From: Escherichia coli
Lineage (GTDB): Bacteria; Pseudomonadota; Gammaproteobacteria; Enterobacterales; Enterobacteriaceae
NCBI RefSeq assembly: GCF_044324785.1
Contig: NZ_CP172127.1
Direction: 5' to 3' (one strand)
Length of the DNA stretch: 64,000 nucleotides
The notes beneath the pieces are model-generated. The model was given only the letters and a program-made list of their open reading frames with translations. It did no database searches and was not told the origin of the DNA. Shown here piece by piece: positions 11,997-32,423 of this stretch. Position 1 is the first letter of the stretch. Each line of letters opens with the position of its first letter. Position numbers and translations under genes: made by a program.

Positions 11997-13397
11997 ATGC
12001 CACATTCCTACGATTACGATGCCATAGTAATAGGTTCCGGCCCCGGCGGCGAAGGCGCTGCAATGGGCCTGGTTAAGCAAGGTGCGCGCGTCGCAGTTAT
12101 CGAGCGTTATCAAAATGTTGGCGGCGGTTGCACCCACTGGGGTACCATCCCGTCGAAAGCTCTCCGTCACGCCGTCAGCCGCATTATAGAATTTAATCAA
12201 AACCCACTTTACAGCGACCATTCGCGACTGCTCCGCTCTTCTTTTGCCGATATCCTTAACCATGCCGATAACGTGATTAATCAACAAACGCGCATGCGTC
12301 AGGGATTTTACGAACGTAATCACTGTGAAATATTGCAGGGAAACGCTCGCTTTGTTGACGAGCATACGCTGGCGCTGGATTGCCCGGACGGCAGCGTCGA
12401 AACACTAACCGCTGAAAAATTTGTTATTGCCTGTGGCTCTCGTCCATATCATCCAACAGATGTTGATTTCACCCATCCACGCATTTACGACAGCGACTCA
12501 ATTCTTAGCATGCACCACGAACCGCGCCATGTGCTGATTTACGGTGCTGGAGTGATCGGCTGTGAATATGCGTCGATCTTCCGCGGTATGGATGTAAAAG
12601 TGGATCTGATCAATACCCGCGATCGCCTGCTGGCATTTCTCGATCAAGAGATGTCAGATTCTCTCTCCTATCACTTCTGGAACAGTGGTGTAGTGATTCG
12701 TCACAACGAAGAGTACGAGAAGATCGAAGGCTGTGACGACGGTGTGATCATGCATCTGAAGTCGGGTAAAAAACTGAAAGCTGACTGCCTGCTCTATGCC
12801 AACGGTCGTACCGGTAATACCGATTCGCTGGCGTTACAGAACATTGGGCTGGAAACTGACAGTCGCGGACAGCTGAAGGTCAACAGCATGTATCAGACCG
12901 CACAGCCGCACGTTTACGCGGTGGGCGACGTGATTGGTTATCCGAGCCTGGCGTCGGCGGCCTATGACCAGGGGCGCATTGCCGCGCAGGCGCTGGTGAA
13001 AGGTGAAGCCACCGCTCATCTGATTGAAGATATCCCTACCGGCATTTACACCATCCCGGAAATCAGCTCTGTGGGCAAAACCGAACAGCAGCTGACCGCG
13101 ATGAAAGTGCCATATGAAGTGGGCCGCGCCCAGTTTAAACATCTGGCACGCGCACAAATCGTCGGCATGAACGTGGGCACGCTGAAAATTTTGTTCCATC
13201 GGGAAACGAAAGAGATTCTGGGTATTCACTGCTTTGGTGAGCGCGCTGCCGAAATTATTCATATCGGTCAGGCGATTATGGAACAGAAAGGTGGCGGCAA
13301 CACTATTGAGTACTTCGTCAACACCACCTTTAACTACCCGACGATGGCGGAAGCCTATCGGGTAGCTGCGTTAAACGGTTTAAACCGCCTTTTTTAA
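11997..13397 (+). CDS. sthA: soluble pyridine nucleotide transhydrogenase SthA (UdhA)
   Basis: 466 aa; [24 protein letters not shown] (FAD GxGxxG), pyridine nucleotide-disulfide oxidoreductase family. Confidence 0.93.
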
Positions 13398-14297
13398 CAC
13401 TTTATCGAAATGGCCATCCATTCTTGCGCGGATGGCCTCTGCCAGCTGCTCATAGCGGCTGCGCAGCGGTGAGCCAGGACGATAAACCAGCCCAATAGTG
13501 CGGCGTGGTTCCGGCTTAATGCACGGCAGATAAACAACCCCATCGCGTTTGCGCTCCGGCGGCACAGCCAGCGCTGGCAATAAAGTGATCCCGCTACCTG
13601 CCGCCACCATGTTGCGCAGCGTCTCCAGGCTGGTCGCGCGGAAGTGTGTATCTTCATCTGCCCCGGCTTCAAAGCAGAAACCCATTGCCTGATCGCGCAA
13701 ACAGTGACCGTCTTCCAGCATCAGCAGTTTTTCCCCTGCCAGATCGGCCATCGGTACGCATTCGCGGTTCGCCCACGGGTGATCTTCATAGATAGCCAGC
13801 AACATTGGCTCATCAAACAACGGCACTTCAATGAATGCTTCGCTCTCTTTCACCAGCGCGAGGATCACGCAATCGAGTTTGCCGCTGTCCAGTTGCGCCA
13901 GTAACTGGTGGGTCTGTGCTTCATGCAGATACATTTCCAGCTTTGGAAAGGTCTGGTGCAGCATCGGGATAATATGCGGTAGCAGGTACGGCCCGACCGT
14001 GGGAATCAAACCAATATGCAGCGGCCCGGACATGGTCTCACCCTGCTGGCTTGCCATCTCTTTAAGGACTTTCACCTCACGCAGCACGGTACGCGCCTGA
14101 TCCACCAGCAGCATTCCCGCCTGGGTGAACAACACTTTACGGCTGGTCCGCTCCAGCAACATCACGCCCAGCTCATCTTCCAGCTTACGAATTTGCCCGC
14201 TAAGCGTCGGCTGGCTAACGTGGCAGGAGTCTGCCGCACGCCGAAAATGGCGGTGTTCAGCCAATGCCACCAGGTACTCAAGATCACGAATATTCAT
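13380..14297 (-). CDS. oxyR: LysR-family hydrogen peroxide-responsive regulator OxyR
   Basis: Translation [44 protein letters not shown]...; start at conserved MNIRDL; 3' end overlaps convergent sthA by 18 bp. Confidence 0.95.
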
Positions 14298-14396
14298 TAT
14301 CCATCCTCCATCGCCACGATAGTTCATGGCGATAGGTAGCATAGCAATGAACGATTATCCCTATCAAGCATTCTGACTGATAATTGCTCACAGAAA

Positions 14397-14506
14397 CGGA
14401 GCGGCACCTCTTTTAACCCTTGAAGTCACTGCCCGTTTCGAGAGTTTCTCAACTCGAATAACTAAAGCCAACGTGAACTTTTGCGGATCTCCAGGATCCG
14501 CTTTTT
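14397..14506 (+). ncRNA. oxyS: OxyS small regulatory RNA, divergent from oxyR
   Basis: Sequence GAAACGGAGCGGCACCTCTTTTAACCCTTGAAGTCACTGCCCGTTTCGAGAGTTTCTCAACTCGAATAACTAAAGCCAACGTGAACTTTTGCGGATCTCCAGGATCCGCTTTTTTTT, including the terminator hairpin GCGGATC/GATCCGC and U tract. Confidence 0.93.
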
Positions 14507-14548
14507 TTTATTCTACAGGCCCACAGCAAGAGAGCCTGATAGTAACAG

Positions 14549-15832
14549 TTACTCAATCCGATCTTTGACAATAAAGAAGTAACACAGCGCCCCGGTGAAC
14601 GTCACACAGGCCGCGATAACCAGCGCCAGATTAAACGAGTGCGTGGTATCCACTACCCAACCGGTTACGATCGGAGCAAAGGAAGCAAAAACAAAACTGC
14701 CAAAGTTTTGAATCCCGGCGATGGAAGCCACTTTTGTTTCTGACACCATCACCTGCACCAGTCCCCATGCAGATGTTCCCGCGAAATGCACGCAGAACAG
14801 CGCCATTGAGATAAACGCTACCGCCTGGGCTGGCGAGGAGGATTGCACGACCAGCAACGTGCCTAATGCCGACATCATCAAACCGCAGACAATAGCCGTT
14901 TTACGCGTCTTCGCCAGGTCGTAGCCTTTTTTCGCCAGCCGATCGACAACAATACCGTTAACCCACATCCCAACCGCCGCCGCGAGGAAAGGAATCGCCG
15001 CCACCCAACCGGTTTTCGCCAGACTGAAACCTTGTTCGGCCTGCAAATAACCGGGCAACCACGCGATGTAGAGCCAGCCTGTATAGTTGACGCCAGAGAA
15101 ACCTAAAATCATCCCCCAGGTTGTCCGATGCTTAAACAGCGCCAGCCACTCGCTAAATTGTAATTGTGGACGCGGTTTAACCGGCGCGGAGAGATAGGTC
15201 CGTTCTTCGTCGGTCAGGACAAACTGCGCCCGGTTGCGATACCACGCGTACCAACAGATCCCAACCAGAATCCCCGCCACGCCGATGATGACGAACATTG
15301 CCCGCCAGCCCCATGCCAGCTGCATCAATACAAGAGCAGGAGGCGCAATAGCCTGACCGATAACGGTAGATGAGTTAAAAATCCCCAGCGCCGTGCCGCG
15401 TTCTTTTTGCGCATACCAGTCGGTGATCGACTTTACTCCCGCAGGCATAAATGGCGCTTCGCCAATACTCAAACCAATACGCATTAAAATAAAGTGGCTA
15501 AAAGAATTAACCATTCCTGTTAATGCCTGCATTAATGACCAGAATATTAAGCCTGCGCCTAAAACTATTCGTGGGCCAAAGCGGTCTAGCAAAATACCGG
15601 AAGGGAGTTGTGAAAAACCATAAGACAGAGAAAAGGCAGAAAGCAAAACGCCAAATTCTGTCGCCGATAATCCTAACTCGCCACGAATCGCTTCGCCTGC
15701 CACGCTCAATGACGAACGGTCGAGGAAATTAACGATCCCCGCCATAAATAATAAAACCAGGGTCACTGTCTGAATACGACGAATCCGTTGCGGTTTATTA
15801 CCCGCAACACTGGTTGACACATCAACGTCCAT
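14549..15832 (-). CDS. MFS transporter, anion:cation symporter type (aldonate/hexuronate transporter-like)
   Basis: 427 aa, 12 predicted TM segments, N-terminal motif GIVNFLDRSSLSVAG typical of DgoT/ExuT/GudP-like MFS sugar-acid permeases; immediately downstream of the dehydratase gene. Confidence 0.8.
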   Translation of the reverse strand: MDVDVSTSVAGNKPQRIRRIQTVTLVLLFMAGIVNFLDRSSLSVAGEAIRGELGLSATEFGVLLSAFSLSYGFSQLPSGILLDRFGPRIVLGAGLIFWSLMQALTGMVNSFSHFILMRIGLSIGEAPFMPAGVKSITDWYAQKERGTALGIFNSSTVIGQAIAPPALVLMQLAWGWRAMFVIIGVAGILVGICWYAWYRNRAQFVLTDEERTYLSAPVKPRPQLQFSEWLALFKHRTTWGMILGFSGVNYTGWLYIAWLPGYLQAEQGFSLAKTGWVAAIPFLAAAVGMWVNGIVVDRLAKKGYDLAKTRKTAIVCGLMMSALGTLLVVQSSSPAQAVAFISMALFCVHFAGTSAWGLVQVMVSETKVASIAGIQNFGSFVFASFAPIVTGWVVDTTHSFNLALVIAACVTFTGALCYFFIVKDRIE

Positions 15833-16952
15833 TTTTAGCTCCTTGAGCGGAATTAATCGATTTGATGACTATTCAGAAAATAATTAAGCGAACCGTTATT
15901 ACCAGTTCCACAATGTGCCATCTTCCAGTCGTGCGACGGGGAGATACGCCGGGTCATACGGATATTTCGCCGCCAGTTTCTCATCGAAAGAAATACCCAG
16001 CCCCGGTTCATCGCCTGGGTGCATATAACCTTCATCGAAGCGCCAGCTATGCGGGAAGACTTCAAGCATTTGTTCGGAATAGCCCATGTACTCCTGAACG
16101 CCAAAGTTTGGCACCCAGAGGTCAAAATGCAGCGCCGCCGCATGACAAACAGGCGATAAATCTGAAGGGCCATGCGAACCGGTACGTACCTGATAAAGCG
16201 ATGCAAAATCGGCAATCCGTCGCATCCCGGTAATGCCGCCTGCATGGGTAATCGTCGTGCGAATATAGTCAATCAGCTGCTCTTCGATTAACTGCTTGCA
16301 GTCCCAGATACTGTTAAACACTTCACCGACCGCAATCGGCGTCACAGTATGCTGGCGAATCAGACGAAAACATTCCTGGTTCTCGGCAGGCGTCGGATCT
16401 TCCATCCAGAACAGGCGGTAATCCTCAATGCTCTTCCCAAAGCGCGCCGCTTCGATAGGAGTCAGGCGATGGTGCATGTCATGCAACAGATGTTCGTTAA
16501 AACCGAACTTATTACGCACCGCTTCGAATAACTTCGGCGTAAAATCGAGATACTTTTCTGAAGACCACAACTGCTCTTCTGGCCACAGGCCTTTGGTTGC
16601 CGGTTCATACGCCAGTCCTTTGCCCTTCGCCAGGCCATAAGTGGTTTGCATACCCGGTACACCACACTGCACACGAATCGCCTTAAAGCCCATCTGCTGG
16701 TGCTTTGCATAGTCTTCAAGGACTTCATCAATCGTACGCCCGGTGGTGTGGCAATAAACCATCACGCCTTCACGAGAAGCACCACCAAGCAGTTGATACA
16801 ATGGCATATTTGCCGCTTTTGCTTTGATATCCCACAACGCCATATCAATGGCAGAAATGGCTGACATCGTGACGGGGCCACGTCGCCAGTAAGCACCGGT
16901 GATGCTGCCAACTTACTGATTTAGTGTATGATGGTGTTTTTGAGGTGCTCCA

Positions 16953-17228
16953 GTGGCTTCTGTTTCTATCAGCTGTCCCTCCTGTTCAGCTACTGACGGG
17001 GTGGTGCGTAACGGCAAAAGCACCGCCGGACATCAGCGCTATCTCTGCTCTCACTGCCGTAAAACATGGCAACTGCAGTTCACTTACACCGCTTCTCAAC
17101 CCGGTACGCACCAGAAAATCATTGATATGGCCATGAATGGCGTTGGATGCCGGGCAACTGCCCGCATTATGGGCGTTGGCCTCAACACGATTTTACGTCA
17201 CTTAAAAAACTCAGGCCGCAGTCGGTAA
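16953..17228 (+). CDS. insA: IS1 protein InsA (zinc-finger DNA-binding)
   Basis: 91 aa [43 protein letters not shown]... Confidence 0.95.
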
Positions 17229-17650
17229 CCTCGCGCATACAGCCGGGCAGTGACGTCATCGTCTGCGCGGAAATGGACGAACAGTGGGGCTATGTCGGGG
17301 CTAAATCGCGCCAGCGCTGGCTGTTTTACGCGTATGACAGTCTCCGGAAGACGGTTGTTGCGCACGTATTCGGTGAACGCACTATGGCGACGCTGGGGCG
17401 TCTTATGAGCCTGCTGTCACCCTTTGACGTGGTGATATGGATGACGGATGGCTGGCCGCTGTATGAATCCCGCCTGAAGGGAAAGCTGCACGTAATCAGC
17501 AAGCGATATACGCAGCGAATTGAGCGGCATAACCTGAATCTGAGGCAGCACCTGGCACGGCTGGGACGGAAGTCGCTGTCGTTTTCAAAATCGGTGGAGC
17601 TGCATGACAAAGTCATCGGGCATTATCTGAACATAAAACACTATCAATAA
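17147..17650 (+). CDS. insB: IS1 transposase InsB (expressed as InsAB' by -1 frameshift)
   Basis: 167 aa ...[41 protein letters not shown]... Confidence 0.93.
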
Positions 17651-18261
17651 GTTGGAGTCATTACCGTAAGCACCTTTATAAAAGAATTGCCAGATATCTT
17701 CGATACGGCTGGCATCGCGGCCAATTAATTGTGGACAAAGATGATCTTTCAGATAAGAAGCGACCGACAATTCGCGCCCATTTAACGTGGCATCTCCTAA
17801 TCCACAAAGTCCGCTTTCAGTGGTTATTTTAAGCGTAACGAAATTACGTCCTGGGCAAGTAACAAAAACATCTGCAGCAATAATTTTCATTATTGCAATC
17901 TCCTGTGTTGTAAATAGACGCTTCAAACTTAATTTTACGCCTACTACCATACAAGAGAGAAAGAGCGATTATTCAACCGTGATCACATTAAAAACAAAAA
18001 TTCCCACCGAGGAACAAGAATATCCTCAAATTTCATCCACACTATTAATTACTATTGTTAAAACAACACGTTAAATAATCACATAACAAATTCCTCTAAG
18101 GAAGAGAGTCATAACAATAACAAATGATAATCATATTTTACTTAATTCAATACGTATCGATATGTTTATTTTAAAAAGATTTTTCGGAATGAGAGATGAA
18201 AAGAAGATACACAAACAGGAAGAAATACGATTAATATTGGTCGCGGTAAGGGTAGCCGTTC

Positions 18262-18378
18262 CTCCCTTCCGCAACCCATTAACCCTTGAAGTCACAGTCT
18301 ATTTCAGGCATTTCTCAACTCAAAATAACGAAGGCCAATGTGAACTTTGTGGCTCTCCAGGATCCGCTTTGTTTTCCA
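18262..18378 (+). repeat. diverged partial copy of the oxyS 3' half including a terminator-like hairpin
   Basis: ttaacccttgaagtcac identical to oxyS; the following ~80 nt are about 80 percent identical (tttctcaactcaaaataacgaaggccaatgtgaactttgtggctctccaggatccgctttgtttt versus oxyS tttctcaactcgaataactaaagccaacgtgaacttttgcggatctccaggatccgctttttttt). Confidence 0.8.
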
Positions 18379-19857
18379 TCAAACAACGGAACTCAGCGCA
18401 CTGGCAACCTGTTTAAAGCGAGCAAACCGTCGCCTGAGCATGTGTGCTTTTTCTACATTCGGTTCAAGACGAATCACGTTGAGATGCGTGGCCTTCATGG
18501 CCTGTTTGAATCCAGAATAAGCCCCTCCTCCTACTGCCGCACACATTGCAGCCGCTCTACAACCTGACTGTTCAATATCGACAATTTCAAGAGGCATGTT
18601 GCTGGCATCACAAAACATCTGCATCCAGATTCTGGAATGCGTTGGCCCGCCAGAGAAACGAATCGTTTGCAATGACTTATCAATCTCAATAAGACGGTCC
18701 TGATGCAACAAATGAGAAAAGACAATGCCCTGATAAATCGCGTACACCAAATCTTCTCTTTTATGATGCCCACACAGCCCCAAAAATCCCCCGCTTAATG
18801 CCTCATGGTAATTCGAGCCAAACAACCACGGGAAAAAGAGAATATCATTCTGCTTCTCATACCCTCGTTCCACCCACTCATTAATCACCCGATAGCTGTC
18901 AGGAAGATCCGGTAAAAATTGCTGCAAGAACCATGTCAAATTACTGGCTGATGTAGGGCTTCCCTCATGGGCGAAAAATGTACCTGGAATGCTAAATTTC
19001 CCCCATACATAGGGATAATCAGAAGGAATAATGCGATCAAAGATACGCGTTGCAATTGACCAGGTGCCAGCAACCGCACTTAACGTTGTACTGTCATAGA
19101 TGCCAGAAGTGAGCGCCGCACCAACGACATCAAAAACACCACCAAAAACAGGCGTTCCGGCGAGAAGCCCACATTGGCTGGCTGCTTCAGATGTCACAAC
19201 CCCTGCTAAATCAGCGGAGCCAATAATATCGGGAACCTTACCCGCAACTTCCTTAATCTCAAATAGGCGAAAAAGTTCAGCATCATAAGCACTGGTATAT
19301 TGATTATAAAAATTACTGCCTGAAATATTGGTTTCTTCACAAGCCAGTTTGCCAGTAAGCCGTGAACGTATGTAATCATGAACCATCAAAATGGTTCCGA
19401 TGCGGCCATAATTGTCAGTCTCATGTTTTTTCAACCAATGCAATAGTGCTACAGGGTGCGATGGCCAGAGCTGTTGCAGACTACGGTGATAGCTTTCGCG
19501 GTCAATTCCTTGTTCTTTCCAGCTTGCAACCAGTTGTTGTGCGCGAGAATCAGAGGAAACAATGCCGTATCGTAAGGGCTTACCTTGCCGGTCGAGCAGG
19601 TACAAACCTTTACCATGAGCAGAAAAACTGATGCCATCAATCTGACTCGCAGTAATATTGTTCTCTGACATCGACAGTGAAATGACCTGGCACGTTACCT
19701 TCCATAACGCCTCCATGTCGCGTTCGCAAAAACCAGGACATGGGCTTAACAGAGGTAACACTTGCGAAGAGACACCTATTTCACGTCCTTCTGCCGTATA
19801 AATTCCCGCTTTGGTTTCTGTACCACCTAAATCGACACCAATAAAATACCGCTCCAT
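18379..19857 (-). CDS. FGGY-family carbohydrate kinase (xylulokinase/L-xylulokinase-like)
   Basis: 492 aa; MERYFIGVDLGGTETKAGIYTAEG N-terminal actin-fold kinase motif; last gene of the minus-strand operon. Confidence 0.82.
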   Translation of the reverse strand: MERYFIGVDLGGTETKAGIYTAEGREIGVSSQVLPLLSPCPGFCERDMEALWKVTCQVISLSMSENNITASQIDGISFSAHGKGLYLLDRQGKPLRYGIVSSDSRAQQLVASWKEQGIDRESYHRSLQQLWPSHPVALLHWLKKHETDNYGRIGTILMVHDYIRSRLTGKLACEETNISGSNFYNQYTSAYDAELFRLFEIKEVAGKVPDIIGSADLAGVVTSEAASQCGLLAGTPVFGGVFDVVGAALTSGIYDSTTLSAVAGTWSIATRIFDRIIPSDYPYVWGKFSIPGTFFAHEGSPTSASNLTWFLQQFLPDLPDSYRVINEWVERGYEKQNDILFFPWLFGSNYHEALSGGFLGLCGHHKREDLVYAIYQGIVFSHLLHQDRLIEIDKSLQTIRFSGGPTHSRIWMQMFCDASNMPLEIVDIEQSGCRAAAMCAAVGGGAYSGFKQAMKATHLNVIRLEPNVEKAHMLRRRFARFKQVASALSSVV

Positions 19858-19873
19858 GATCCCTCCTTAGTTT

Positions 19874-20737
19874 CTAAATATTATCCCAGCCGGCAAGGCG
19901 CATTTTCTCTTCAATCCATTGACGTGCATGAATAATTTCTAATAGAGGTTCCGTCGCTTTTTCTGTCCACATTTCTATCAGAAACGTTCCGCGATAATTA
20001 AGATTACGCAGAATCTTAAATAATTTAATAAAATCTACACACCCTTCACCAAAAGGAACGTCACGAAATTGCCCTGGAGAATCAGGCGTTACTGGGTACG
20101 TATCTTTAAGATGGATTGCGGCAATTCGATCAATCCCCTTTACCAGCTCACTTTCCAGTTCATTACCCCATGCGGTCAGATTGCCAACATCCGGATAAAC
20201 GGTAAACCAAGGGGAATTAATTTTTGTATCCAGGACTTTCCATTTACTAATAGAATTAATAAATGGCGTATCCATGATTTCTACAGCACACATAACTTGT
20301 GCCGCTGCGGCCTGTTCAGCTGTCCAGGCCATCGCATCTTCAAACCAGGCGATAGTTTCTTCATTCTGCGGCTCATAATAAACGTCATAGCCTGCCAGTT
20401 GGATTGTTCGAATCCCCAAATCCTGCGCCAGGCGTAACGCCTTCAACATAATCGTACGCGCCTGCTGACGAGTATCTCTATCATGGCTACCAAATGGAAA
20501 ACGCCGGTGAGCAGACAGGCACATTGTCGGAATACGGATCCCCGTTTGCTGAATGGCGCTAATAAGCTCCATACGCTCGGTGAGCGACCAGTCCAGGCGG
20601 GCGAGTCGTTCATCATTCTCATCTACCGACATCTCAACAAAATCAAAACCGCAAGATTTAGCCAGGGCTAGTTTCTCTACCCAACTGGTATTCCTGGGTA
20701 GCGCTTTTTCATAAATACCTAACGGGTGGCGTCGCAT
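19874..20737 (-). CDS. sugar-phosphate 3-epimerase, TIM-barrel (L-xylulose/L-ribulose-5-phosphate 3-epimerase UlaE/SgbU-like)
   Basis: 287 aa; LGIYEKALP...GFDFVEMSVDE.DERLARLDWS...CLSAHRRFPFGS...IQLAGYDVYYE...PDVGNL...FGEG.VDF motifs shared with UlaE/SgbU. Confidence 0.85.
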   Translation of the reverse strand: MRRHPLGIYEKALPRNTSWVEKLALAKSCGFDFVEMSVDENDERLARLDWSLTERMELISAIQQTGIRIPTMCLSAHRRFPFGSHDRDTRQQARTIMLKALRLAQDLGIRTIQLAGYDVYYEPQNEETIAWFEDAMAWTAEQAAAAQVMCAVEIMDTPFINSISKWKVLDTKINSPWFTVYPDVGNLTAWGNELESELVKGIDRIAAIHLKDTYPVTPDSPGQFRDVPFGEGCVDFIKLFKILRNLNYRGTFLIEMWTEKATEPLLEIIHARQWIEEKMRLAGWDNI

Positions 20738-21813
20738 TATTTTCCCTCACGAGTGATCAATTGTTGTTGAAAGATTTTCCGGCTCTTATTCATGTCACGC
20801 TGCAACTGCCATTTTTGTTTGATGAATTTAAATGCCAATGCGGCGATCAATGTGATCCCCCATACCGCCAGATTGAAATGCAAACTAATTCCCAACAGAC
20901 TAAGGCCGGTAGCAATAACCTGAAGCACAAGTAAGGCACAAAAAACATGACTGACTTTACCCGCCCCACCGAATGGATCTGTGCCTCCCAATACAATTGC
21001 AAGAACCGTCAAGAGCAAATAGGAATCGCCATAGCCCATACGCGCCGAATTAAATCGCGCGAGCATAATAAGACCTGCTAATACACACAACATGCTGGAT
21101 ATAGCATATATAGCAATTAATACGCGGTCGGTGCGAATACCGCTAAACCATGTGGCGTTAATATTACTGCCACACATATAAATCGTTTTTCCCGTACGGG
21201 TTTTGCCGAGGAACAGAGCTAAAGCAACGGTGGTGACGATAAAAATCATCATCGGTACTGGGATCCCCATGATAACTTCAGACCCAATACTGCGGACTAC
21301 TGGTGGCATACCACTTAAAGCTGCCCCCTTAGTCAGGTAAATACCGATACCACTAATAATGGTCATGCTACCCAATGTGACCAAAATAGGGTGAGCGCCT
21401 ATATGAGAAATAATTAACCCAGTAATAGCTCCAATGATGATGGCAATAAGCATCGCCCCGACAATAGCCAGGAAGAGCCAAAACAACTGGCTACCTGTAG
21501 ATGCATCTGCGGGTACATATTGAATCAACACCCAGGCCATAAACAGGCTGGTCAGATTCGCAGTACCGATGATTGCCAGATTAAGCCCCCCGCTCAACAT
21601 CGGTATAAACATCGCAAACGTGAGCAACCCAAGCTCTGGCAATTGAAATGCAATGCTCAGAAAAGTATTGTCGGTGAAAAAACGCCCCGGCATTGCCAGA
21701 CTAAATAACACCACCGCAATAAAACATATTGATAATAAGCCTGAACTGGTACCATCTAGTGGAAAAAATATCCGCTTGTTCATTTCGATCCTCCCGTTAG
21801 ACGAAACCAACAT
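20737..21813 (-). CDS. sugar ABC transporter permease (CUT2/RbsC-like)
   Basis: 358 aa, multi-pass membrane protein, in operon with the ATPase and binding protein. Confidence 0.8.
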   Translation of the reverse strand: MLVSSNGRIEMNKRIFFPLDGTSSGLLSICFIAVVLFSLAMPGRFFTDNTFLSIAFQLPELGLLTFAMFIPMLSGGLNLAIIGTANLTSLFMAWVLIQYVPADASTGSQLFWLFLAIVGAMLIAIIIGAITGLIISHIGAHPILVTLGSMTIISGIGIYLTKGAALSGMPPVVRSIGSEVIMGIPVPMMIFIVTTVALALFLGKTRTGKTIYMCGSNINATWFSGIRTDRVLIAIYAISSMLCVLAGLIMLARFNSARMGYGDSYLLLTVLAIVLGGTDPFGGAGKVSHVFCALLVLQVIATGLSLLGISLHFNLAVWGITLIAALAFKFIKQKWQLQRDMNKSRKIFQQQLITREGK

Positions 21814-22789
21814 CAGTTTCTTTACGCTTTTTGTAATGGGTCACACAAATCGCCGAGACAATAACCACCCCAATAACGATATTGACGAAATAACTCGAGA
21901 CACCAATCAAATTAAGGCCGTTTTTAAGAATACCGATAAGAAATACGCCCATAAGCGTACCAATGACCGTACCACGTCCGCCTGATAAACTGGCACCGCC
22001 CAATACCGCTGCAGCCAGCACATCCAACTCTCCGCCAACCAATGCATTCGGCACAACTTCACTCATACGGTAAGCTTGCAGCATTCCACCAATTGCTGCA
22101 GCGGCACCAAGATAACCGTAAGCAAACAGATAAATTAGCGACACCCGAATCCCAATACGTCTTGCTGATTCGGTATTCCCTCCCACGGCATAAAGCTGAC
22201 GCCCAATATGGGTTTTGTTCATTATCACCCACGTCAGAAATGCCATTCCCAGCATAACCACTAACGGTAATCCGATCTGGTAATCTTCTCCGCCAAATTC
22301 AAAACTCAGGAAAGAACGCTGCGTAATCCACCAATCCGGTAAATCGTAAATACTGTGACCATTAGTCAACCACATCAACATACCGAACAGTAACGACTGC
22401 ATACTAATCGTAATGATGATAGAAACGACATTAAGGTAATAAATAAGAATAGCGTTTATCAAACCAAAAATGATGCCAAAAAAAACAGCAAACACCAGGC
22501 AGAAAAATGGATTTGATAGCGTTTCATTAAGCAGTAACGACGCCACAACATATTGCACAACCGAAGCTACTGCTGCAAAAGAGATATCAATTCCGCCAGT
22601 AACCAATACGACAAATAATCCGAGGGCGAAAATACCCGTTACGGCATAACTCTCCGAGAGATCGAGCAAGTTCTGTATTGATAAAAACTCATCGCTCATG
22701 ATGGAAAAAAATACCAGCATGAGAACAATGACCCATCCTAACCAAGCTTCGACTGAACGAGGAAACCGCAGCCGCATAAAGCTAACCAT
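21797..22789 (-). CDS. sugar ABC transporter permease (CUT2/RbsC-like)
   Basis: 330 aa hydrophobic multi-pass protein; overlaps neighbouring genes by a few codons (translational coupling). Confidence 0.8.
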   Translation of the reverse strand: MVSFMRLRFPRSVEAWLGWVIVLMLVFFSIMSDEFLSIQNLLDLSESYAVTGIFALGLFVVLVTGGIDISFAAVASVVQYVVASLLLNETLSNPFFCLVFAVFFGIIFGLINAILIYYLNVVSIIITISMQSLLFGMLMWLTNGHSIYDLPDWWITQRSFLSFEFGGEDYQIGLPLVVMLGMAFLTWVIMNKTHIGRQLYAVGGNTESARRIGIRVSLIYLFAYGYLGAAAAIGGMLQAYRMSEVVPNALVGGELDVLAAAVLGGASLSGGRGTVIGTLMGVFLIGILKNGLNLIGVSSYFVNIVIGVVIVSAICVTHYKKRKETDVGFV

Positions 22790-24299
22790 TAATCACCTCC
22801 GCCAACTGCTGCTCGGTATAATTCGAAGGCAACAGCTCATGAATAATCTTTCCGCGCTTCATATGAAAAATACGATCGCAGTTATAATAAGCTTCTGGTG
22901 CTTCATCAGTAATTAATATCACTGAAATACCCACACCTGAAAGCCGATGAATAAGCTGGTAAATACTATCTTTTGCGCCAATATCTACACCTACCGTTGG
23001 CGCATCCAGAATTAAAACCTTAGGTCGTGTTAAAATCCATTTAGCCAGGACAACCTTTTGTTGATTGCCACCAGATAGCGTTGAAAGTGGATTATTTGGA
23101 TCGGTGACCTTAATATCCAAATCCTGGATCCACTCCTTGACTAAGGTTTCTTTTCGATTTTCATCAATAAACCCCGATGGCGTCTTTAAACGATCCAGAA
23201 TCGAGAGCACCATATTATCGCTGATAGATTGGGGTAATACGGCCCCCAGTGTCAGGCGATCTTCTGAAACATATGCTATTCCCAGTTTTACCGCATGCGT
23301 GTTGTCTTTAATTGTAACGGGCTTACCTTCAAGATAAATATCACCACTATCTGCTCGAGTAATACCGAAAAGACTCAATGCTAATTCGGTTCTCCCCGCA
23401 CCAAGTAAACCACACAATCCCAGAACCTCGCCTTGGTGTAGTTTTAGAGATACATCTTCAAATTGCCCTTTTCTGCATAATTTTTTTAGTTCAAGAACTA
23501 CTTTACCTTCAACGCTATTTGGTAGTTTTTTCTGGTGGACTATAGTTTTTCCGGTCATTAACTCAGTAATATCGCCTGGAGAAAGTTGATTGGCAGCCCA
23601 CGTTCCAATTATCTCTCCATCACGGATGACCGTAATTCGGTCTGAGATTTCCTTAACTTCATCAAGGCGGTGGCTAACAAAAACTACGGTAATATTTTTA
23701 TCGCGTAAGTAATTCACTGTGCGTAGTAATTGATTAACTTCAGTGCGCGTCAATGACGCCGTTGGCTCGTCCATGATGACTAACCGGGCATCGGCAATCA
23801 GAGCCCGGCAAATAGCGACCTGTTGGCGTTGTGCAATCGGCAAATGTTGTACTAACGCATCAGGATCGAGATTGAATTCCAGTTCCTGAATTATTTTCTG
23901 TGATACATCTCGAAGTTGTTTTTTTCTGTGCAGCCCTAAATATCCCTTCAGGTTGTATTCAAAAGCGATATTTTCAGCCACAGAAAGATTTGGGAATAAA
24001 GAAAGATCCTGATATATCACCTGAATACCCAGTTCCCGAGCTTTATCAGGAGAAAGACGAGTCCAGGACTTACCATCTATAATAATTTCACTTCCCGAAT
24101 CAGGAACATAAACACCACACAGCGTTTTGATCAGAGTACTTTTACCACACCCATTCGCACCAGCAAGACAATGAACCTCACCTTTATTTAAGGTAAGATT
24201 GATATTTTTTAGAGCCCTATGGCCACCGAAACTTTTCGTTAGTGACCTTAGCGTCACTAATGGTTGCTCCGCATTCTTCTCTATAATATGAGGCATCAT
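22782..24299 (-). CDS. sugar ABC transporter ATP-binding protein with two fused ABC domains (RbsA/MglA/AraG type)
   Basis: 505 aa; Walker A GANGCGKST in domain 1, second P-loop GLLGAGRTE, ABC signature LSGGNQQK. Confidence 0.88.
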   Translation of the reverse strand: MMPHIIEKNAEQPLVTLRSLTKSFGGHRALKNINLTLNKGEVHCLAGANGCGKSTLIKTLCGVYVPDSGSEIIIDGKSWTRLSPDKARELGIQVIYQDLSLFPNLSVAENIAFEYNLKGYLGLHRKKQLRDVSQKIIQELEFNLDPDALVQHLPIAQRQQVAICRALIADARLVIMDEPTASLTRTEVNQLLRTVNYLRDKNITVVFVSHRLDEVKEISDRITVIRDGEIIGTWAANQLSPGDITELMTGKTIVHQKKLPNSVEGKVVLELKKLCRKGQFEDVSLKLHQGEVLGLCGLLGAGRTELALSLFGITRADSGDIYLEGKPVTIKDNTHAVKLGIAYVSEDRLTLGAVLPQSISDNMVLSILDRLKTPSGFIDENRKETLVKEWIQDLDIKVTDPNNPLSTLSGGNQQKVVLAKWILTRPKVLILDAPTVGVDIGAKDSIYQLIHRLSGVGISVILITDEAPEAYYNCDRIFHMKRGKIIHELLPSNYTEQQLAEVING

Positions 24300-24362
24300 A
24301 ATATTCCTGAATACGACTAAAGGAATTCCGGGTCAAATTTGACCCGGTGATTTACGGTAAAA

Positions 24363-25367
24363 TTACAAGCCTAACTTCACTAAATGTCGTGTATTTTCAA
24401 GATCGAGCTTTTCTGGATTATCACTATAAATAGTGTTGTTATTAACCTTGATCTCGCCCATATCACCGATTTTTACACCGTCTTTAATAGGTTCACCGTT
24501 CATCATTGCCGTCGCAACCTGGACAAAAACCTTACCCGCAATCATAGGGTTTGAAATATATCCCCCATCAATGGCGCCTTTTTCGAGTAGCTTAATTCCC
24601 TGACCTGGAGTGAAGGTTCCAAAAACGCAAATTGCGTCATTTTTCTTCCGCTTATCAATAGCACGCCCCGCACCAATTGGTCCTTGTGAACCAAATGACA
24701 TAATGCCTTTAAGATCTTTATATTTAGACATTAAATCGTTCGTCGTGCGCATTGAATCATCCACCGATTCAGCAACACCAAAACGATCTTCAACCAACGT
24801 CATATTTGGATAATGTTCTTTTTGATAAGCAATCGCGGCATTGGCCCAGTCATTTACCAAAGGCACGGTCAGACTGCCGACAAACATGGCGTATTTACCT
24901 TCTTCGCCCATGCACTTCGCCATATCTTTCATATGATTGGCACCCATTGTCTGGGTATTTAACAACTCAAAATCCCAATCTGCATTTTTTTGATCTGGTG
25001 ATTCGTGGGTAATAACTTTAATACCGGCTTCTTGTGCACGCTTAAGTACAGGTTCAAGAACCTTTGCATCGTTAGGAACAACCCCAATAACATCCACTTT
25101 TCGTGCAATTAAATCTTCAATCGCCCGAACCTGTTCAGCTGGATCTGCCGTTGTAGGGCCGACCTGCCATGCATCAACCCCCAATAGTTTTCCTTCATCT
25201 TTAATGCCTTGTTCCATCACATTAAACCAGGGAATGCCACCGACTTTTACTACTACCCCCATCGTAAAAGGTTTATTCGCTTTTTGTGATGTTACAGTCT
25301 GATCAGCCCATGCAGCAGTGGAAGATAATACGGTAGCAATAAGGCAGGGTAAGATTAATTTTTTCAT
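24363..25367 (-). CDS. periplasmic sugar-binding protein of ABC transporter (RbsB/LsrB-like)
   Basis: 334 aa with N-terminal signal peptide MKKLILPCLIATVLSSTAAWA; first gene of operon. Confidence 0.82.
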   Translation of the reverse strand: MKKLILPCLIATVLSSTAAWADQTVTSQKANKPFTMGVVVKVGGIPWFNVMEQGIKDEGKLLGVDAWQVGPTTADPAEQVRAIEDLIARKVDVIGVVPNDAKVLEPVLKRAQEAGIKVITHESPDQKNADWDFELLNTQTMGANHMKDMAKCMGEEGKYAMFVGSLTVPLVNDWANAAIAYQKEHYPNMTLVEDRFGVAESVDDSMRTTNDLMSKYKDLKGIMSFGSQGPIGAGRAIDKRKKNDAICVFGTFTPGQGIKLLEKGAIDGGYISNPMIAGKVFVQVATAMMNGEPIKDGVKIGDMGEIKVNNNTIYSDNPEKLDLENTRHLVKLGL

Positions 25368-25489
25368 CGTAATTTCCTTAAGAAATAGTTCAGGTGTCAG
25401 GAAAACTCGATATAATATCGACCTGACTATTTATATAATTTATAATCCCTTAGGCATTGATTAATAATTTAGACAATAAATAATGCCTA

Positions 25490-26299
25490 TTATTTATCAA
25501 CCTCCACAATGTTTAATTGTGGAAATTGTGTTCGATACCGAGTATCTGTACAAACATTAGTCACCAGAATATCGATTTCATCCAGCGTGCATATTTTACT
25601 AAATGCATACTGTTCAAACTTACTGGAGTCGACCAGCAATATTTTTTGTCCTGACACCTGAAGCATCACCTGTTTAAGTCTGGCATTAATTTCACTGCCA
25701 TCGCGGACACCATTCCCCAGATTCAACCCCTGGCATGAAAAGAAAAAACTGTTGATTTGAAAATTTCGGATCGCCCCCTCTGCAACCGGGCCATGAAAAT
25801 CATCATGTCGCTCAGAATACTCACCACCGATACCAATAATTCGAACTCGATCACGGCAAGCCAACGCCTGAATTATCCGTAATGAATTTGTAACTACAGT
25901 AACATCTATATCGGGAATTTGACGAGCTAAAAACCAACAAGTACTACTGTTATCCATTAAAATACAATCACCAGGGTGAATAAATTGCAATGCGGCCTTC
26001 GCAATTCTGGCTTTTATATCAGGATTTTCTTCAGTCCGTTTACGGAATGATTCCGCACGATCGATACTATTATCTTGCCACGCATTATCGGCGAGCATAA
26101 CCGGAGCGCTATCAGATGAATCCAGAGCGACCGCGCCACCAAAGCTACGGATTAACTTTTTGTTGCGCTCCAGTACCGTTAAATCCCGACGAATTGTCTC
26201 AGGAGACGCTTTAAATAATCGTGATAATTCTGTTACCTGTACAGCACCTTGTTTTTGTACATGTGCGCATATCATTTTATGGCGCTCTGCCTGCAACAT
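25490..26299 (-). CDS. DeoR-family transcriptional regulator
   Basis: 269 aa; N-terminal HTH (VTELSRLFKASPETIRRDL) and C-terminal DeoR sugar-phosphate-binding domain; upstream of the ABC operon on the same strand. Confidence 0.85.
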   Translation of the reverse strand: MLQAERHKMICAHVQKQGAVQVTELSRLFKASPETIRRDLTVLERNKKLIRSFGGAVALDSSDSAPVMLADNAWQDNSIDRAESFRKRTEENPDIKARIAKAALQFIHPGDCILMDNSSTCWFLARQIPDIDVTVVTNSLRIIQALACRDRVRIIGIGGEYSERHDDFHGPVAEGAIRNFQINSFFFSCQGLNLGNGVRDGSEINARLKQVMLQVSGQKILLVDSSKFEQYAFSKICTLDEIDILVTNVCTDTRYRTQFPQLNIVEVDK

Positions 26300-26752
26300 A
26301 GTATCGGTCCGTTATTATCAAATTAGCATGCTTATATAATTAACTGTTCCCTCATAAAATAAAGTGATAGGAATCAAGATTCATTTTATAAATATAATCG
26401 CAAACAGAAATGGTGATCTTTACCACAAATTAAATTGAGAATATTCTACTATTGGACATTTTTTTGAGATATACGTCACTAAATAAGCTTTATTCTGTCA
26501 CCTGACGAAAAATTTAAATGCAAAAACAAAAATAATCGGGCATAGCAATCTCTTCCATTCATGACCGAATACGCCCGAATAAAACCGTTTACGCCCACTT
26601 ACCCTCTTTCATTGCCTTCTTACATGCCTTGAATATTTTACATTTCTTATATTCAGCGTAATTTAGGCAACATAATTTACGAGCAAAAATAGCCAAAACC
26701 CAAAAGTTAAAGTTTATTTATATAATACATACAGATTATCGTGGAGTTAAAA

Positions 26753-27435
26753 ATGGATACGCTAAAGGAAAAAGTTCTTGCTGCGAATTTATCACTACCC
26801 CTTCATCAGTTAGTGACGTTTACCTGGGGAAATGTTAGCGGTATTGATCGCGAAAAAGGTGTCATGGTTATTAAACCTTCTGGGGTCGAATACAGCCAAA
26901 TGGGCAGGTGGTAGTGGATTTACAAAGTGGTGAAGTTATTGATGGACACAGGAAACCCTCTTCAGACACAGATACTCATCTGGCGCTATACCGTGCTTTC
27001 CCGGATATTGGAGGTATCGTTCATACCCATTCCCGACACGCCACAATATGGGCTCAGGCCGGAAAAGATCTCACGGCCTTTGGGACAACCCATGCAGATT
27101 ATTTCTACGGCACTATCCCCTGTACACGCCCCATGAAGGATGACGAAATTAATGGACAATATGAATATGAAACGGGGCGAGTGATTATTGAAACGTTCAG
27201 GCAACGAGAAATATCTCCCGCTGACATTCCGGCTGTTTTAGTAAACAGTCATGGCCCCTTTGCCTGGGGAACTGATCCCGCGAACGCCGTGCATAACGCC
27301 GTTGTACTTGAAGAAATCGCCTATATGAATCTCTTTACACAACAGCTACACCCCCATCTTACGGCTATTCAACAGCCTCTACTGGATAAGCATTTTTTAC
27401 GCAAGCATGGTGCCAATGCTTATTACGGGCAGTAA
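26753..27435 (+). pseudogene. L-ribulose-5-phosphate 4-epimerase (AraD/SgbE/UlaF-like), frameshifted near codon 50
   Basis: ATG at 26753 with GGAG RBS gives [53 protein letters not shown] then stop at 26912; +1 frame continues [52 protein letters not shown]...HGANAYYGQ, strongly AraD-like. Confidence 0.8.
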
Positions 27436-27484
27436 CCCTCTAAGCATGGCCTGGCGTTTTGCCAGGCCACGAATCGCCCAGGAC

Positions 27485-28858
27485 TTACCCCAACCGCGCC
27501 CTTGCAAAAGCAATCGCCTGCGCCACCTGCTGCGGTGAGACGCCGCCTTTTGCAGCACGCTTGTCGAGGCACGATTGCAGCGACAGAATCGGATAGACAT
27601 CTTCGCCAATCACCTGGCTGAATTTCTGCAACTCACTGAGCGGCAGATCTTCCAGCGGTTTGCCCTGACGAATGGCTTCCACCACCGCTTCACCAACAAT
27701 ATGGTGCGCCTCGCGGAACGGTACGCCTTTCGCCACCAGGTAATCCGCCAGTTCAGTGGCGTTCGCATACCCCTGCTGCGCCGCTTCCTGGCAACGTGGA
27801 CATTTCACCTGAATGCCGTCCAGCACCAGCGCCGCCATATGCAAGCAGTCCAGCCAGGTATCGAGCGCGTCGAACAGACCTTCTTTGTCTTCCTGCATAT
27901 CTTTGTTGTAAGCCAGCGGCAAACCTTTCAGCGTCATCATCATGCCGGTTAACGCCCCCTGCACCCGACCGCATTTACCGCGAATCAGCTCCAGCGCATC
28001 CGGGTTTTTCTTCTGCGGCATTAATGATGAACCTGAAGTCACGCGGTCAGAAAGCTCCACAAATCCCGCTTCGCCGGTGTTAAAGAAAATCAGATCTTCA
28101 GCAAAACGCGACAGATGCACCATGCCGATAGCGGCAGCAGAAAGCAGTTCCAGCACATGATCACGGTCAGAAACGCTGTCGAGACTGTTACGGGTCGCCG
28201 AAGCAAAGCCCAGCCAGCCTGCTAACTGTTCACGGTCGATTTCATAGGCCGTTCCCGCCAGTGCGCCACAGCCTAACGGGCTGACATCCAGACGCTTAAG
28301 CGCGTCCTGCAAACGGCTTTCATCACGCGCCAGCATCTCAACGTAGGCCAGGCACCAGTGCGCGAAAGTCACCGGTTGAGCGCGTTGCAGGTGGGTGTAA
28401 CCTGGCATTACCGCGTCCTGATTGTTTTGTGCGGTTTCCACCAGCGCCGATTGCAGCTGCCGGTTAGCCGTCAGTAACTCGCTAACGGTATCTTTGCACC
28501 ACAGTTTCAGGTCAGTCGCGACCTGGTCATTACGGCTACGCCCGGTGTGCAGTTTTTTGCCTAACTGACCCACTTTGTCGATCAATTTGCCTTCCACCCA
28601 GCTATGGATATCTTCGGCGTCGCTTTCAAGGATTTGTTGTGGCCTGGCGCGAACATCTTCCAGCAGCACGTTCAGCGCCTCTTCCAGTTGCGCCTGTTCT
28701 TCTGCGGTCAACACACCGACCGTTACCAGGGCTTTGGACCAGGCCACAGAGCCAACAATATCCTGCTCCGCCAGACGGTAATCAAAGCGCAGTGAGTCGT
28801 TGAATTGTTTGAACCGTTGATCTGCTGCCTGGGTAAAACGCCCGCCCCAAAGTGCCAT
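27485..28858 (-). CDS. argH: argininosuccinate lyase ArgH
   Basis: 457 aa; [37 protein letters not shown]..., fumarate lyase signature [10 protein letters not shown]. Confidence 0.95.
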
Positions 28859-32012: not shown

Positions 32013-32039
32013 AAAAGCAAATCAGGCTGATGACAAAGC

Positions 32040-32105
32040 CATGCAAGCGCACGGACAGTCCCCTCGCCCCTTCGGGGAGAGGGTTAGGGTGAGGGGAAAA
32101 CCGTG
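32040..32105. repeat. intergenic palindromic repeat containing motif ggggagagggttagggtgagggg
   Basis: gtcccctcgccccttcggggagagggttagggtgagggg; the same motif occurs in inverse orientation at 47672-47694. Confidence 0.6.
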
Positions 32106-32423
32106 CCCATACTGACCCGTAAGCGAGTTTGTCAGCAATCTCAAATGATGCCCAAATGGTAACTACAACTCATAACTCTTTGGTGTTAATTGAGGCGATT
32201 TTTTAACATTCCCATAAGTTACGCTTATTTAAAGCGTCGTGAATTTAATGGCGTAAATTCCTGCTATTTATTCGTTTGCTGAAGCGATTTCGCAGCATTT
32301 GACGTCATCGCTTTTACGTGGCTTTATAAAAGACGACGAAAAGCAAAGCCCGAGCATATTCGCGCCAATGCGACGTGAAGGATACAGGGCTATCAAACGA
32401 TAAGATGGGGTGTCTGGGGTAAT

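Follow-up and report, generated by a model that had tools for sequence, protein, structure and literature searches.

The junction between the small RNA (sRNA) gene oxyS and the gene argH was analysed in a window of 64,000 nucleotides from the Escherichia coli contig NZ_CP172127.1, where about 13 kb of extra DNA lies between the two genes. The analysis indicated that this segment is probably a non-mobile piece of the chromosome composed of two nested sugar-catabolism islets (here called module 1 and module 2) and one recent IS1 element, seated in the convergent oxyS/argH terminator region. The 13 kb is an old Escherichia haplotype without which most E. coli exist, and it is not a recent or recombinase-driven island. 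Compared with K-12 the segment appears as an island; the underlying variation is an old polymorphism with three states (empty, module 1, modules 1 and 2), which is shared by Escherichia albertii. Within the segment, a decayed copy of oxyS serves as an internal marker for the presumed order of insertion. Nothing here overturns current understanding; what goes beyond the ordinary does so modestly, namely the pseudo-oxyS relic and the link of module 2 to the ketopentose-binding protein AauA.

Borders and haplotypes of the segment

The window was aligned to E. coli RM11911 (locus L003), which has the K-12-type junction and was taken as the "empty" reference. The alignment breaks exactly at 14509/14510 and at 27484/27485. 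In RM11911 the distance from oxyS to the argH stop codon is 53 bp, and the extra DNA relative to this junction comprises positions 14510-27484 of the window (12,975 bp). These borders agree within 3 bp with those of a first-pass annotation of the same DNA, which had proposed some 13 kb interposed between the two genes. The window runs in the reverse of the K-12 gene order (rrn operon, btuB riboswitch, trmA, yijD, fabR, sthA, oxyR, oxyS). On sequence comparison, the hairpin GGCCTGGCGTTTTGCCAGGCC near the right border matched in type the native terminator hairpin of the oxyS/argH junction. The earlier proposal of two unrelated sugar modules was borne out by the gene families, and the modules also differ in prevalence, in diversity and in GC content, which is 51% for module 1 and 43% for module 2 with flanks of 52-54%. 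RefSeq already annotates the segment gene by gene, and no paper describing it was found within the literature library that was searched.

The distribution of the haplotypes was recorded in 5426 complete E. coli genomes. The empty junction, which the first-pass annotation had given as the K-12 arrangement, was present in 3553 of them. Module 1 was found in 1859 genomes (34%), including the unrelated strains ABU 83972, SE11 and O104:H4. The two counts add up to 5412, and therefore almost every genome carries one of three haplotypes (empty, module 1, or modules 1 and 2). Module 2 was found in only 146 genomes (2.7%), all of them with a chromosomal copy at one place per genome and always together with module 1 or a remnant of it. 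The whole composite, including the oxyS copy, was present in 145 of these 146, and the remaining genome carries an IS1-mediated deletion running from the transporter gene of module 1 into the kinase gene of module 2. Insertion sequences have also entered this region. IS1 struck the island independently in several strains, and in E. coli M21170 (L100 1518-2492) the oxyS/argH junction is empty but for an insertion of ISApl1, an IS30-family element associated with mcr-1.

The features of an integrase-type island were then looked for in the segment. Neither an integrase nor a recombinase was found among its open reading frames (ORFs) of at least 90 amino acids, all of which encode a transporter, an enzyme, a regulator or the IS1 proteins InsA and InsB, and no integrase was present in the RefSeq annotation of five orthologous loci. 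Rfam gave no tRNA in or beside the segment, no att core was seen, and the flanking repeats are long and diverged. Thus an integrase or recombinase gene at one end, and insertion at a tRNA, tmRNA or att site with short exact repeats, are both lacking. Both modules gave no match in plasmids, and in phage records the only matches were to IS1.

The degenerate oxyS copy

The oxyS-like repeat noticed in the first pass is real. It is recognised by the Rfam OxyS model and forms a direct repeat of 97 nt with the working gene (14413-14509 against 18279-18375; 82.7% identity). Its score of 41.1 bits falls below the 75-bit threshold of RF00035, and many of its pairs are non-canonical or broken. The gene and its copy bracket module 1 only and not the whole insert. 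The copy is confined to genomes with module 2 (145 of the 5426), its features are of the Escherichia type and not of the Citrobacter type, and behind it comes what is left of the native spacer after oxyS (CCATCAAACAACGG compared with GCCATAAAAAAGCCCGG) instead of module 1 border sequence. An oxyS remnant was sought in genomes having module 1 alone and none was detectable. These genomes have a repetitive extragenic palindromic (REP)-like element (in ATCC 43896 at L002 6168-6248; Rfam naRNA4 27.9 bits, below the 59.5-bit threshold) between the manD upstream region and argH, at the place where the composite has the oxyS copy and module 2. The AT-rich region 5' of manD is only 55-72% identical, beyond about position 18090, to the same region in module-1-only genomes, and this drop in identity is an old haplotype boundary. 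About 3% of E. coli genomes may present annotation pipelines and sRNA surveys with this second oxyS-like sequence, which is non-functional.

Occurrence outside E. coli and age of the composite

An E. albertii assembly (locus L097) revealed the order oxyR, oxyS, a decayed module 1 in which no genes are called, the oxyS copy, module 2 and argH. A contig from a sequencing run (L098) gave the same match coordinates and identities, with only fragments of the module 1 genes called. The identity between the E. albertii assembly and the window is 89.6-91.8% for oxyR, argH, argC, argE and ppc and 95.0% for argB. Within the segment it is 91-93% for module 1, 90.8% for the manD upstream region, 94% for the oxyS copy and 94.2-97.3% for the genes of module 2. 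The presence of the whole composite in E. albertii at such identity, the decayed oxyS included, argues that it dates to about the split of E. coli and E. albertii; from these comparisons it would be about as old as that split, or somewhat younger in the case of module 2.

In Citrobacter amalonaticus and a second Citrobacter, module 2 alone sits exactly between argH and oxyS (argH, module 2, oxyS, oxyR). The encoded proteins have 68-92% identity with their E. coli counterparts, compared with 93-97% for ArgH, ArgB, OxyR and SthA. In C. amalonaticus the native terminator hairpin is found as a direct repeat at both ends of module 2 (37 nt, 84%). Yersinia enterocolitica, Salmonella Newport and Hafnia also have the eight-gene module, at loci unrelated to this junction. 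Its homologue in a Hafnia-type contig (L099 17590-21005) stands beside a Psu-domain gene and two reverse-transcriptase-domain genes, and in Salmonella Newport it stands beside a type I restriction-modification gene (L090) and an rve-family transposase (L091). A recent donor of module 2 was sought and none can be named, as the most similar kinases from outside Escherichia reach about 66-70% identity. In Enterobacter sp. Bisph1 and Photorhabdus, among the ArgH matches listed (mostly Firmicutes loci), argH is directly followed by oxyR. Owing to this adjacency in the sampled distant relatives, the empty junction is regarded as the deeper ancestral state.

Recombination and proposed history

The divergence among E. 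coli lineages is uneven along the region. Against strain Nord58, module 2 of the window differs by 0.29% while the flanks and module 1 differ by 1.7-2.9%. Against a third lineage (locus L005), module 2 differs by 1.5% and the other segments by 1.6-4.8%. Module 2 and the oxyS relic are thus much less diverged than their surroundings within E. coli. Divergent patches make a mosaic of the argH gene, and this is seen even when the window is compared with E. coli N3, the genome closest to it. With N3 the left flank and module 1 are 99.5-100% identical; over three consecutive 200-bp windows of argH (27885-28485) the identity falls to 95.5-97.0%, with smaller dips further on in argB-argC. The dip in argH looks like a short recombination patch. 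The overall pattern fits an exchange of module 2 among E. coli lineages by homologous recombination with end points near the borders.

A history consistent with these observations can be proposed. Module 2 would first have adjoined an Escherichia-type oxyS directly, as it still does in Citrobacter. Module 1 together with a working oxyS would later have been placed to the left of module 2, and the inner oxyS copy would have been left to decay. Both steps would fall at or before the E. coli/E. albertii split, approximately. The present variation in E. coli would then reflect loss and homologous recombination in the flanking core genes, and not repeated site-specific integration.

Several points weigh against this reading. 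The proposed order of insertion and the way in which the repeats arose are tentative, and the terminator-like hairpins at the module ends could be convergent instead of duplicated. The E. albertii evidence consists of one assembly and one sequencing-run contig of unstated species. Module 2 diverges between E. coli and E. albertii by about 4-5%, compared with about 8-10% for most of the flanking core genes, and a later transfer of module 2 between the two species may have occurred.

Alternative explanations

The first-pass annotation had taken the convergent oxyS/argH junction for an integration hotspot hit more than once, and in its strongest form this explanation describes a recently acquired island, with the terminator as a preferred entry point through which several cassettes came independently, also in this lineage. 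The segment is indeed accessory and composite, and other cargo is found at the junction elsewhere (ISApl1 in M21170, and module 2 alone in the two Citrobacter lineages, there in a diverged form flanked by the duplicated native hairpin of 37 nt). The low GC and the rarity of module 2, its divergence among E. coli lineages, which is 6-10 times lower than that of the flanks, its position beside mobile-type genes in Salmonella Newport and Hafnia, and the ISApl1 and IS1 strikes on the junction or the island in several strains are all in accordance with it. The recent or site-specific sense of a hotspot found no support. No integrase, recombinase, tRNA, att core, plasmid copy or phage copy was found, and only two types of cargo were seen in the 5426 genomes. 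The composite with its decayed oxyS copy is common to E. albertii at 3-9% divergence, and therefore it was not assembled in the recent history of this strain. We consider a recent island at a true hotspot unlikely.

The comparison of presence and composition proposed in the first pass divided the segment, as module 1 behaves much like old backbone missing in many lineages, the K-12 type among them, and module 2 is rare and low in GC. The explanation that the whole segment is ancestral Enterobacteriaceae backbone, deleted by K-12 and most E. coli, is in accordance with the module 1 data. Module 1 has a backbone-like GC content, is spread over about a third of the genomes across unrelated strains, diverges among E. 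coli lineages much as the flanks do, and is present in E. albertii; the direct repeats (oxyS with its copy, and the hairpin copies) would also permit deletion back to the empty form. The other genera speak against it. In Enterobacter sp. Bisph1 and Photorhabdus argH is followed directly by oxyR, and the spacer of empty E. coli matches the spacer of other genera. Citrobacter is without module 1 at this site, and module 1 homologues lie at the rspAB locus in Raoultella, Kluyvera and Cedecea. The low GC of module 2 and its Citrobacter-Escherichia divergence, which is far above that of core genes, also do not suit an ancestral origin, and this explanation is accordingly judged improbable. It is least credible of all that the second oxyS is a functional paralogous sRNA and no relic: its alignment does cover the full OxyS model (positions 1-110) and it is retained in both E. 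coli and E. albertii, but besides the low score and the broken pairs its terminator stem is mismatched and varies between lineages, its rate of change is close to that of the non-coding DNA around it (94% identity to E. albertii compared with 90.8% and 91.2%), and the sequence upstream of it is, by inspection, unlike the oxyR/oxyS control region.

Features of the region

The coordinates of the features of the composite and its flanks are collected in Table 1.

Table 1. Features of the oxyS-argH region and its flanks (window coordinates)
Feature	Position	Strand	Remarks
sthA	11997-13397		Left flank
oxyR	ends near 14297	-	Left flank
oxyS sRNA gene with terminator T-run	14393-14509 (Rfam span 14393-14502)	+	Left border; RF00035 139.5 bits, gathering score 75
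Module 1	14549-17890		MFS transporter and D-mannonate dehydratase gene manD
MFS transporter	14549-15832	-	D-galactonate/aldonate transporter type; intact, 427 amino acids; TIGR00893 269 bits
manD, 3' part	15899-16897	-	Enolase superfamily; cut by IS1
IS1 (insA/insB)	16898-17665	+	768 bp, within manD; canonical inverted repeats
manD, 5' part	17666-17890	-	Begins MKIIAADV at 17890
AT-rich region 5' of manD	17891-18245		GC 29.5-31.5%
Pseudo-oxyS (degenerate oxyS copy)	18246-18368	+	Oriented like oxyS; 41.1 bits with the Rfam OxyS model, E 6e-7
Module 2	18379-27435		Eight genes; seven on the minus strand, divergent araD-like gene on the plus strand
FGGY-family sugar kinase	18379-19857	-	492 amino acids; best NCBIfam match XylB, 201.5 bits (cut-off 380)
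L-ribulose-5-phosphate 3-epimerase (UlaE/SgbU type)	19874-20737	-	NF009689 476 bits (cut-off 200); TIGR00542 458.5 (272)
Two ABC permease genes	20737-22789 (20737-21813; 21797-22789)	-	
Double-domain sugar ABC ATPase	22782-24299	-	505 amino acids; monosaccharide-importer family matches, none at equivalog cut-off
Periplasmic sugar-binding protein	24363-25367	-	Related to D-ribulose binder AauA; PDB 9I1M 286.5 bits, 49% identity
DeoR/GlpR-family regulator	25490-26299	-	
AT-rich divergent intergenic region	26300-26752		Between DeoR gene and araD-like gene; GC 30.5%; 91.2% identical to E. albertii
araD-like L-ribulose-5-phosphate 4-epimerase gene	26753-27435	+	Pseudogene here
GC-rich hairpin GGCCTGGCGTTTTGCCAGGCC	27448-27468		Between araD-like stop and argH stop
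argH (ORF)	27485-28858	-	Right border of extra DNA; then argB, argC, argE

Two AT-rich stretches had been proposed in the first pass as putative promoter regions. Their AT-richness was upheld (GC 31.5% and 30.5%), and a promoter role is suggested by position only, one lying 5' of manD and the other between the divergent DeoR and araD-like genes. A consensus promoter scan of the region gave 17 promoter-like sites, fewer than the 26.1 of shuffled sequence, and is uninformative on the AT-rich stretches.

Outside the segment, the argE-ppc intergenic region (32014-32178) is 163 bp long in the window and 53 bp in strain N3. The extra stretch contains CCCCTCGCCCCTTCGGGGAGAGGGTTAGGGTGAGGGG, which we take to resemble a box C-type element, a small intergenic repeat. 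In E. albertii an ORF of 79 codons is called within the argE-ppc spacer.

Module 1 and the IS1 insertion

The best NCBIfam match of the module 1 transporter, TIGR00893, lies below the subfamily cut-off, and RefSeq names the protein only as "MFS transporter". The intact orthologue of manD (locus L001) scored 732.9 bits over its full length against the ManD model NF043051, for which the curated cut-off is 550 bits. On in silico removal of IS1 the manD frame of the window becomes complete with 404 amino acids, and the window gene is thus a disrupted member of the ManD family. In the proposed pathway, the transporter would import D-mannonate or another hexonate, or else a precursor, and ManD would carry out the dehydration to 2-keto-3-deoxygluconate. 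This compound enters core metabolism, and that arising from module 1 would do so through the KdgK/Eda route.

The IS1 noticed in the first pass was confirmed as the only copy in the 64-kb window. A Shigella origin of the window, considered in view of its pseudogenes, was set aside as unsupported on account of this single copy. It has the length of 768 bp, terminal inverted repeats and insA and insB frames, and it is flanked by the 9-bp target duplication GTAAGCACC at 16889-16897 and 17666-17674. Its sequence is 99.7% identical to IS1A copies. The exact IS1/manD junction of the window was found in none of the 5426 complete genomes. The identity of N3 with the window is 99.9% up to the IS1 site and 99.3% beyond it, and IS1 is absent from its manD gene at this site. 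The insertion in the window is a separate and recent event.

In N3 the manD gene (L004 6377-7591) has a nonsense codon of its own at residue 64 and carries the pseudogene flag of RefSeq. The independent inactivation of manD in the window and in N3 suggests that selection on module 1 is relaxed in this lineage. In another strain, E. coli PM7 (NZ_CP073996.1 727724-727881), an IS1 is present in the paralogous rspA gene, and the rspA/IS1 junction aligns in one piece (90.5%) with the manD/IS1 junction of the window. By this alignment, IS1 may have chosen the homologous target site in the rspA paralogue.

Homologues of the module 1 transporter with 85-89% identity are found in Raoultella, Kluyvera and Cedecea at the rspA/rspB-ynfA locus and not at oxyS. 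In one Raoultella genome the MFS-rspA-rspB cluster is directly followed by prophage genes (RecT, DinI) and an integrase of phage type (L094 10846-12126), and the rsp locus is a prophage attachment neighbourhood in that genome.

Module 2 and its probable substrate

Both epimerases of module 2 pass curated NCBIfam cut-offs, and the kinase, the transporter and the regulator match no curated equivalog. For the permease ORF at 20737-21813, RefSeq places the start later, giving a protein of 348 amino acids. Relative to N3, 10 bp are deleted from the 4-epimerase gene at about 26907, which results in a frameshift and an early stop; the intact orthologue scored 429.9 bits with NF009002 (cut-off 386) and 410.6 bits with TIGR00760 (cut-off 389). 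With manD interrupted and the 4-epimerase gene frameshifted, both modules would be partly disabled in this strain unless paralogues compensate.

The closest structural relative of the binding protein, AauA, was crystallised with D-ribulose (Cottam et al. 2025, PMC12307932; PDB 9I1M), and its His167 bonds the C2 and C4 hydroxyls of the sugar (PMC12307932). Five of the six residues of AauA which contact D-ribulose are kept in the module 2 protein (Lys, Trp, two Glu and Ser). Val171 stands at the position of His167 and does not vary among seven orthologues from five genera. D-ribulose and L-xylulose are C4 epimers of each other. Judging from gene content and these residues, module 2 probably imports a ketopentose. 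Under control of the DeoR-type regulator, the ABC importer would take up the sugar, the kinase would phosphorylate it and the epimerases would convert it by way of L-ribulose-5-phosphate to D-xylulose-5-phosphate. The most economical substrate would be L-xylulose, because it is the sole one which needs the kinase, the 3-epimerase and the 4-epimerase to reach D-xylulose-5-phosphate; this assignment is made with moderate confidence only.

Some points count against this assignment as well. No curated equivalog fixes the substrate of the transporter or of the kinase. The module is without an UlaD/SgbH-type decarboxylase, an isomerase or a dehydrogenase, so that gene content and one homologous structure are what supports the choice of a ketopentose. 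An assembly error could account for the 10-bp deletion in the 4-epimerase gene.

An assignment of module 2 to the lsr autoinducer-2 system was considered and rejected, as the scores fell below the cut-offs for LsrB (103.9 bits; cut-off 384), LsrK (140.2; 528) and LsrA (402.7; 586), and neither an LsrF nor an LsrG gene was found in the module.

Module 2 is an uncharacterised locus of ABC importer, kinase and epimerases, whose binding protein is 89-99% identical across Escherichia, Citrobacter, Salmonella, Yersinia and Hafnia; owing to this conservation it is a reasonable candidate for a gut-niche pentulose pathway. A bolder proposal would make it a dedicated high-affinity system for L-xylulose scavenging and, next to Aau and Rbl, a third kind of ketopentose ABC system. 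It may also spread among Enterobacteriaceae without a recombinase, bracketed by copies of the native oxyS/argH terminator sequence, through RecA-dependent loop-out and re-insertion into naive genomes at this junction. This combined proposal is speculative and, taken as a whole, doubtful.

Comparison with known systems

As a genomic element, the segment resembles the integrase-free "islets" that are exchanged through flanking core genes. It shares with them the lack of mobility genes, the fixed chromosomal position, the small number of discrete haplotypes, the mosaic flanks and a cargo that is less diverse than the flanks. It differs from them in that duplicated parts of the native intergenic region stand on both sides of each module, and one of these parts is a full-length decayed sRNA gene.

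Module 1 is related to the rspA/rspB system and to its ManD subgroup. Its ManD protein scored 902 and 896 bits against the PDB entries 4IL2 ("RspA") and 4E4F, and is by eye about 91-92% identical to these solved dehydratases. In Raoultella, Kluyvera and Cedecea the homologous transporter gene also adjoins rspA. The Escherichia pair differs in being a second copy, placed between oxyS and argH and without rspB, and the manD DNA is only about 81% identical to the rspA type of the strain itself.

Module 2 shows likeness to the lower pathways of K-12 for L-xylulose and L-ascorbate, yiaK-S (LyxK, SgbH, SgbU, SgbE) and ula (UlaD, UlaE, UlaF), as its epimerases pass the UlaE/SgbU and AraD/SgbE/UlaF models. 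The chemistry of the K-12 systems also ends at D-xylulose-5-phosphate, and their uptake is by TRAP or PTS transport, whereas module 2 has an ABC importer. Among the eight genes there is no 3-keto-L-gulonate-6-phosphate decarboxylase (UlaD/SgbH), the kinase matches no curated equivalog, and the regulator is of the DeoR type.

The nearest systems on the transport side are Aau of enterohaemorrhagic E. coli (EHEC) and Rbl of Citrobacter rodentium. All three have the same type of monosaccharide ABC importer and are accessory loci of patchy occurrence, and in Rbl, as in module 2, the transporter is coupled to an FGGY kinase. Module 2 differs from them in its genomic site and in having an invariant Val in place of His167 of AauA. 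Its kinase also falls short of the pentulose/D-ribulokinase model TIGR01315 (96 bits compared with 408.7), and it adds the L-ribulose-5-phosphate 3- and 4-epimerases and a DeoR regulator, which are present in neither Aau nor Rbl.

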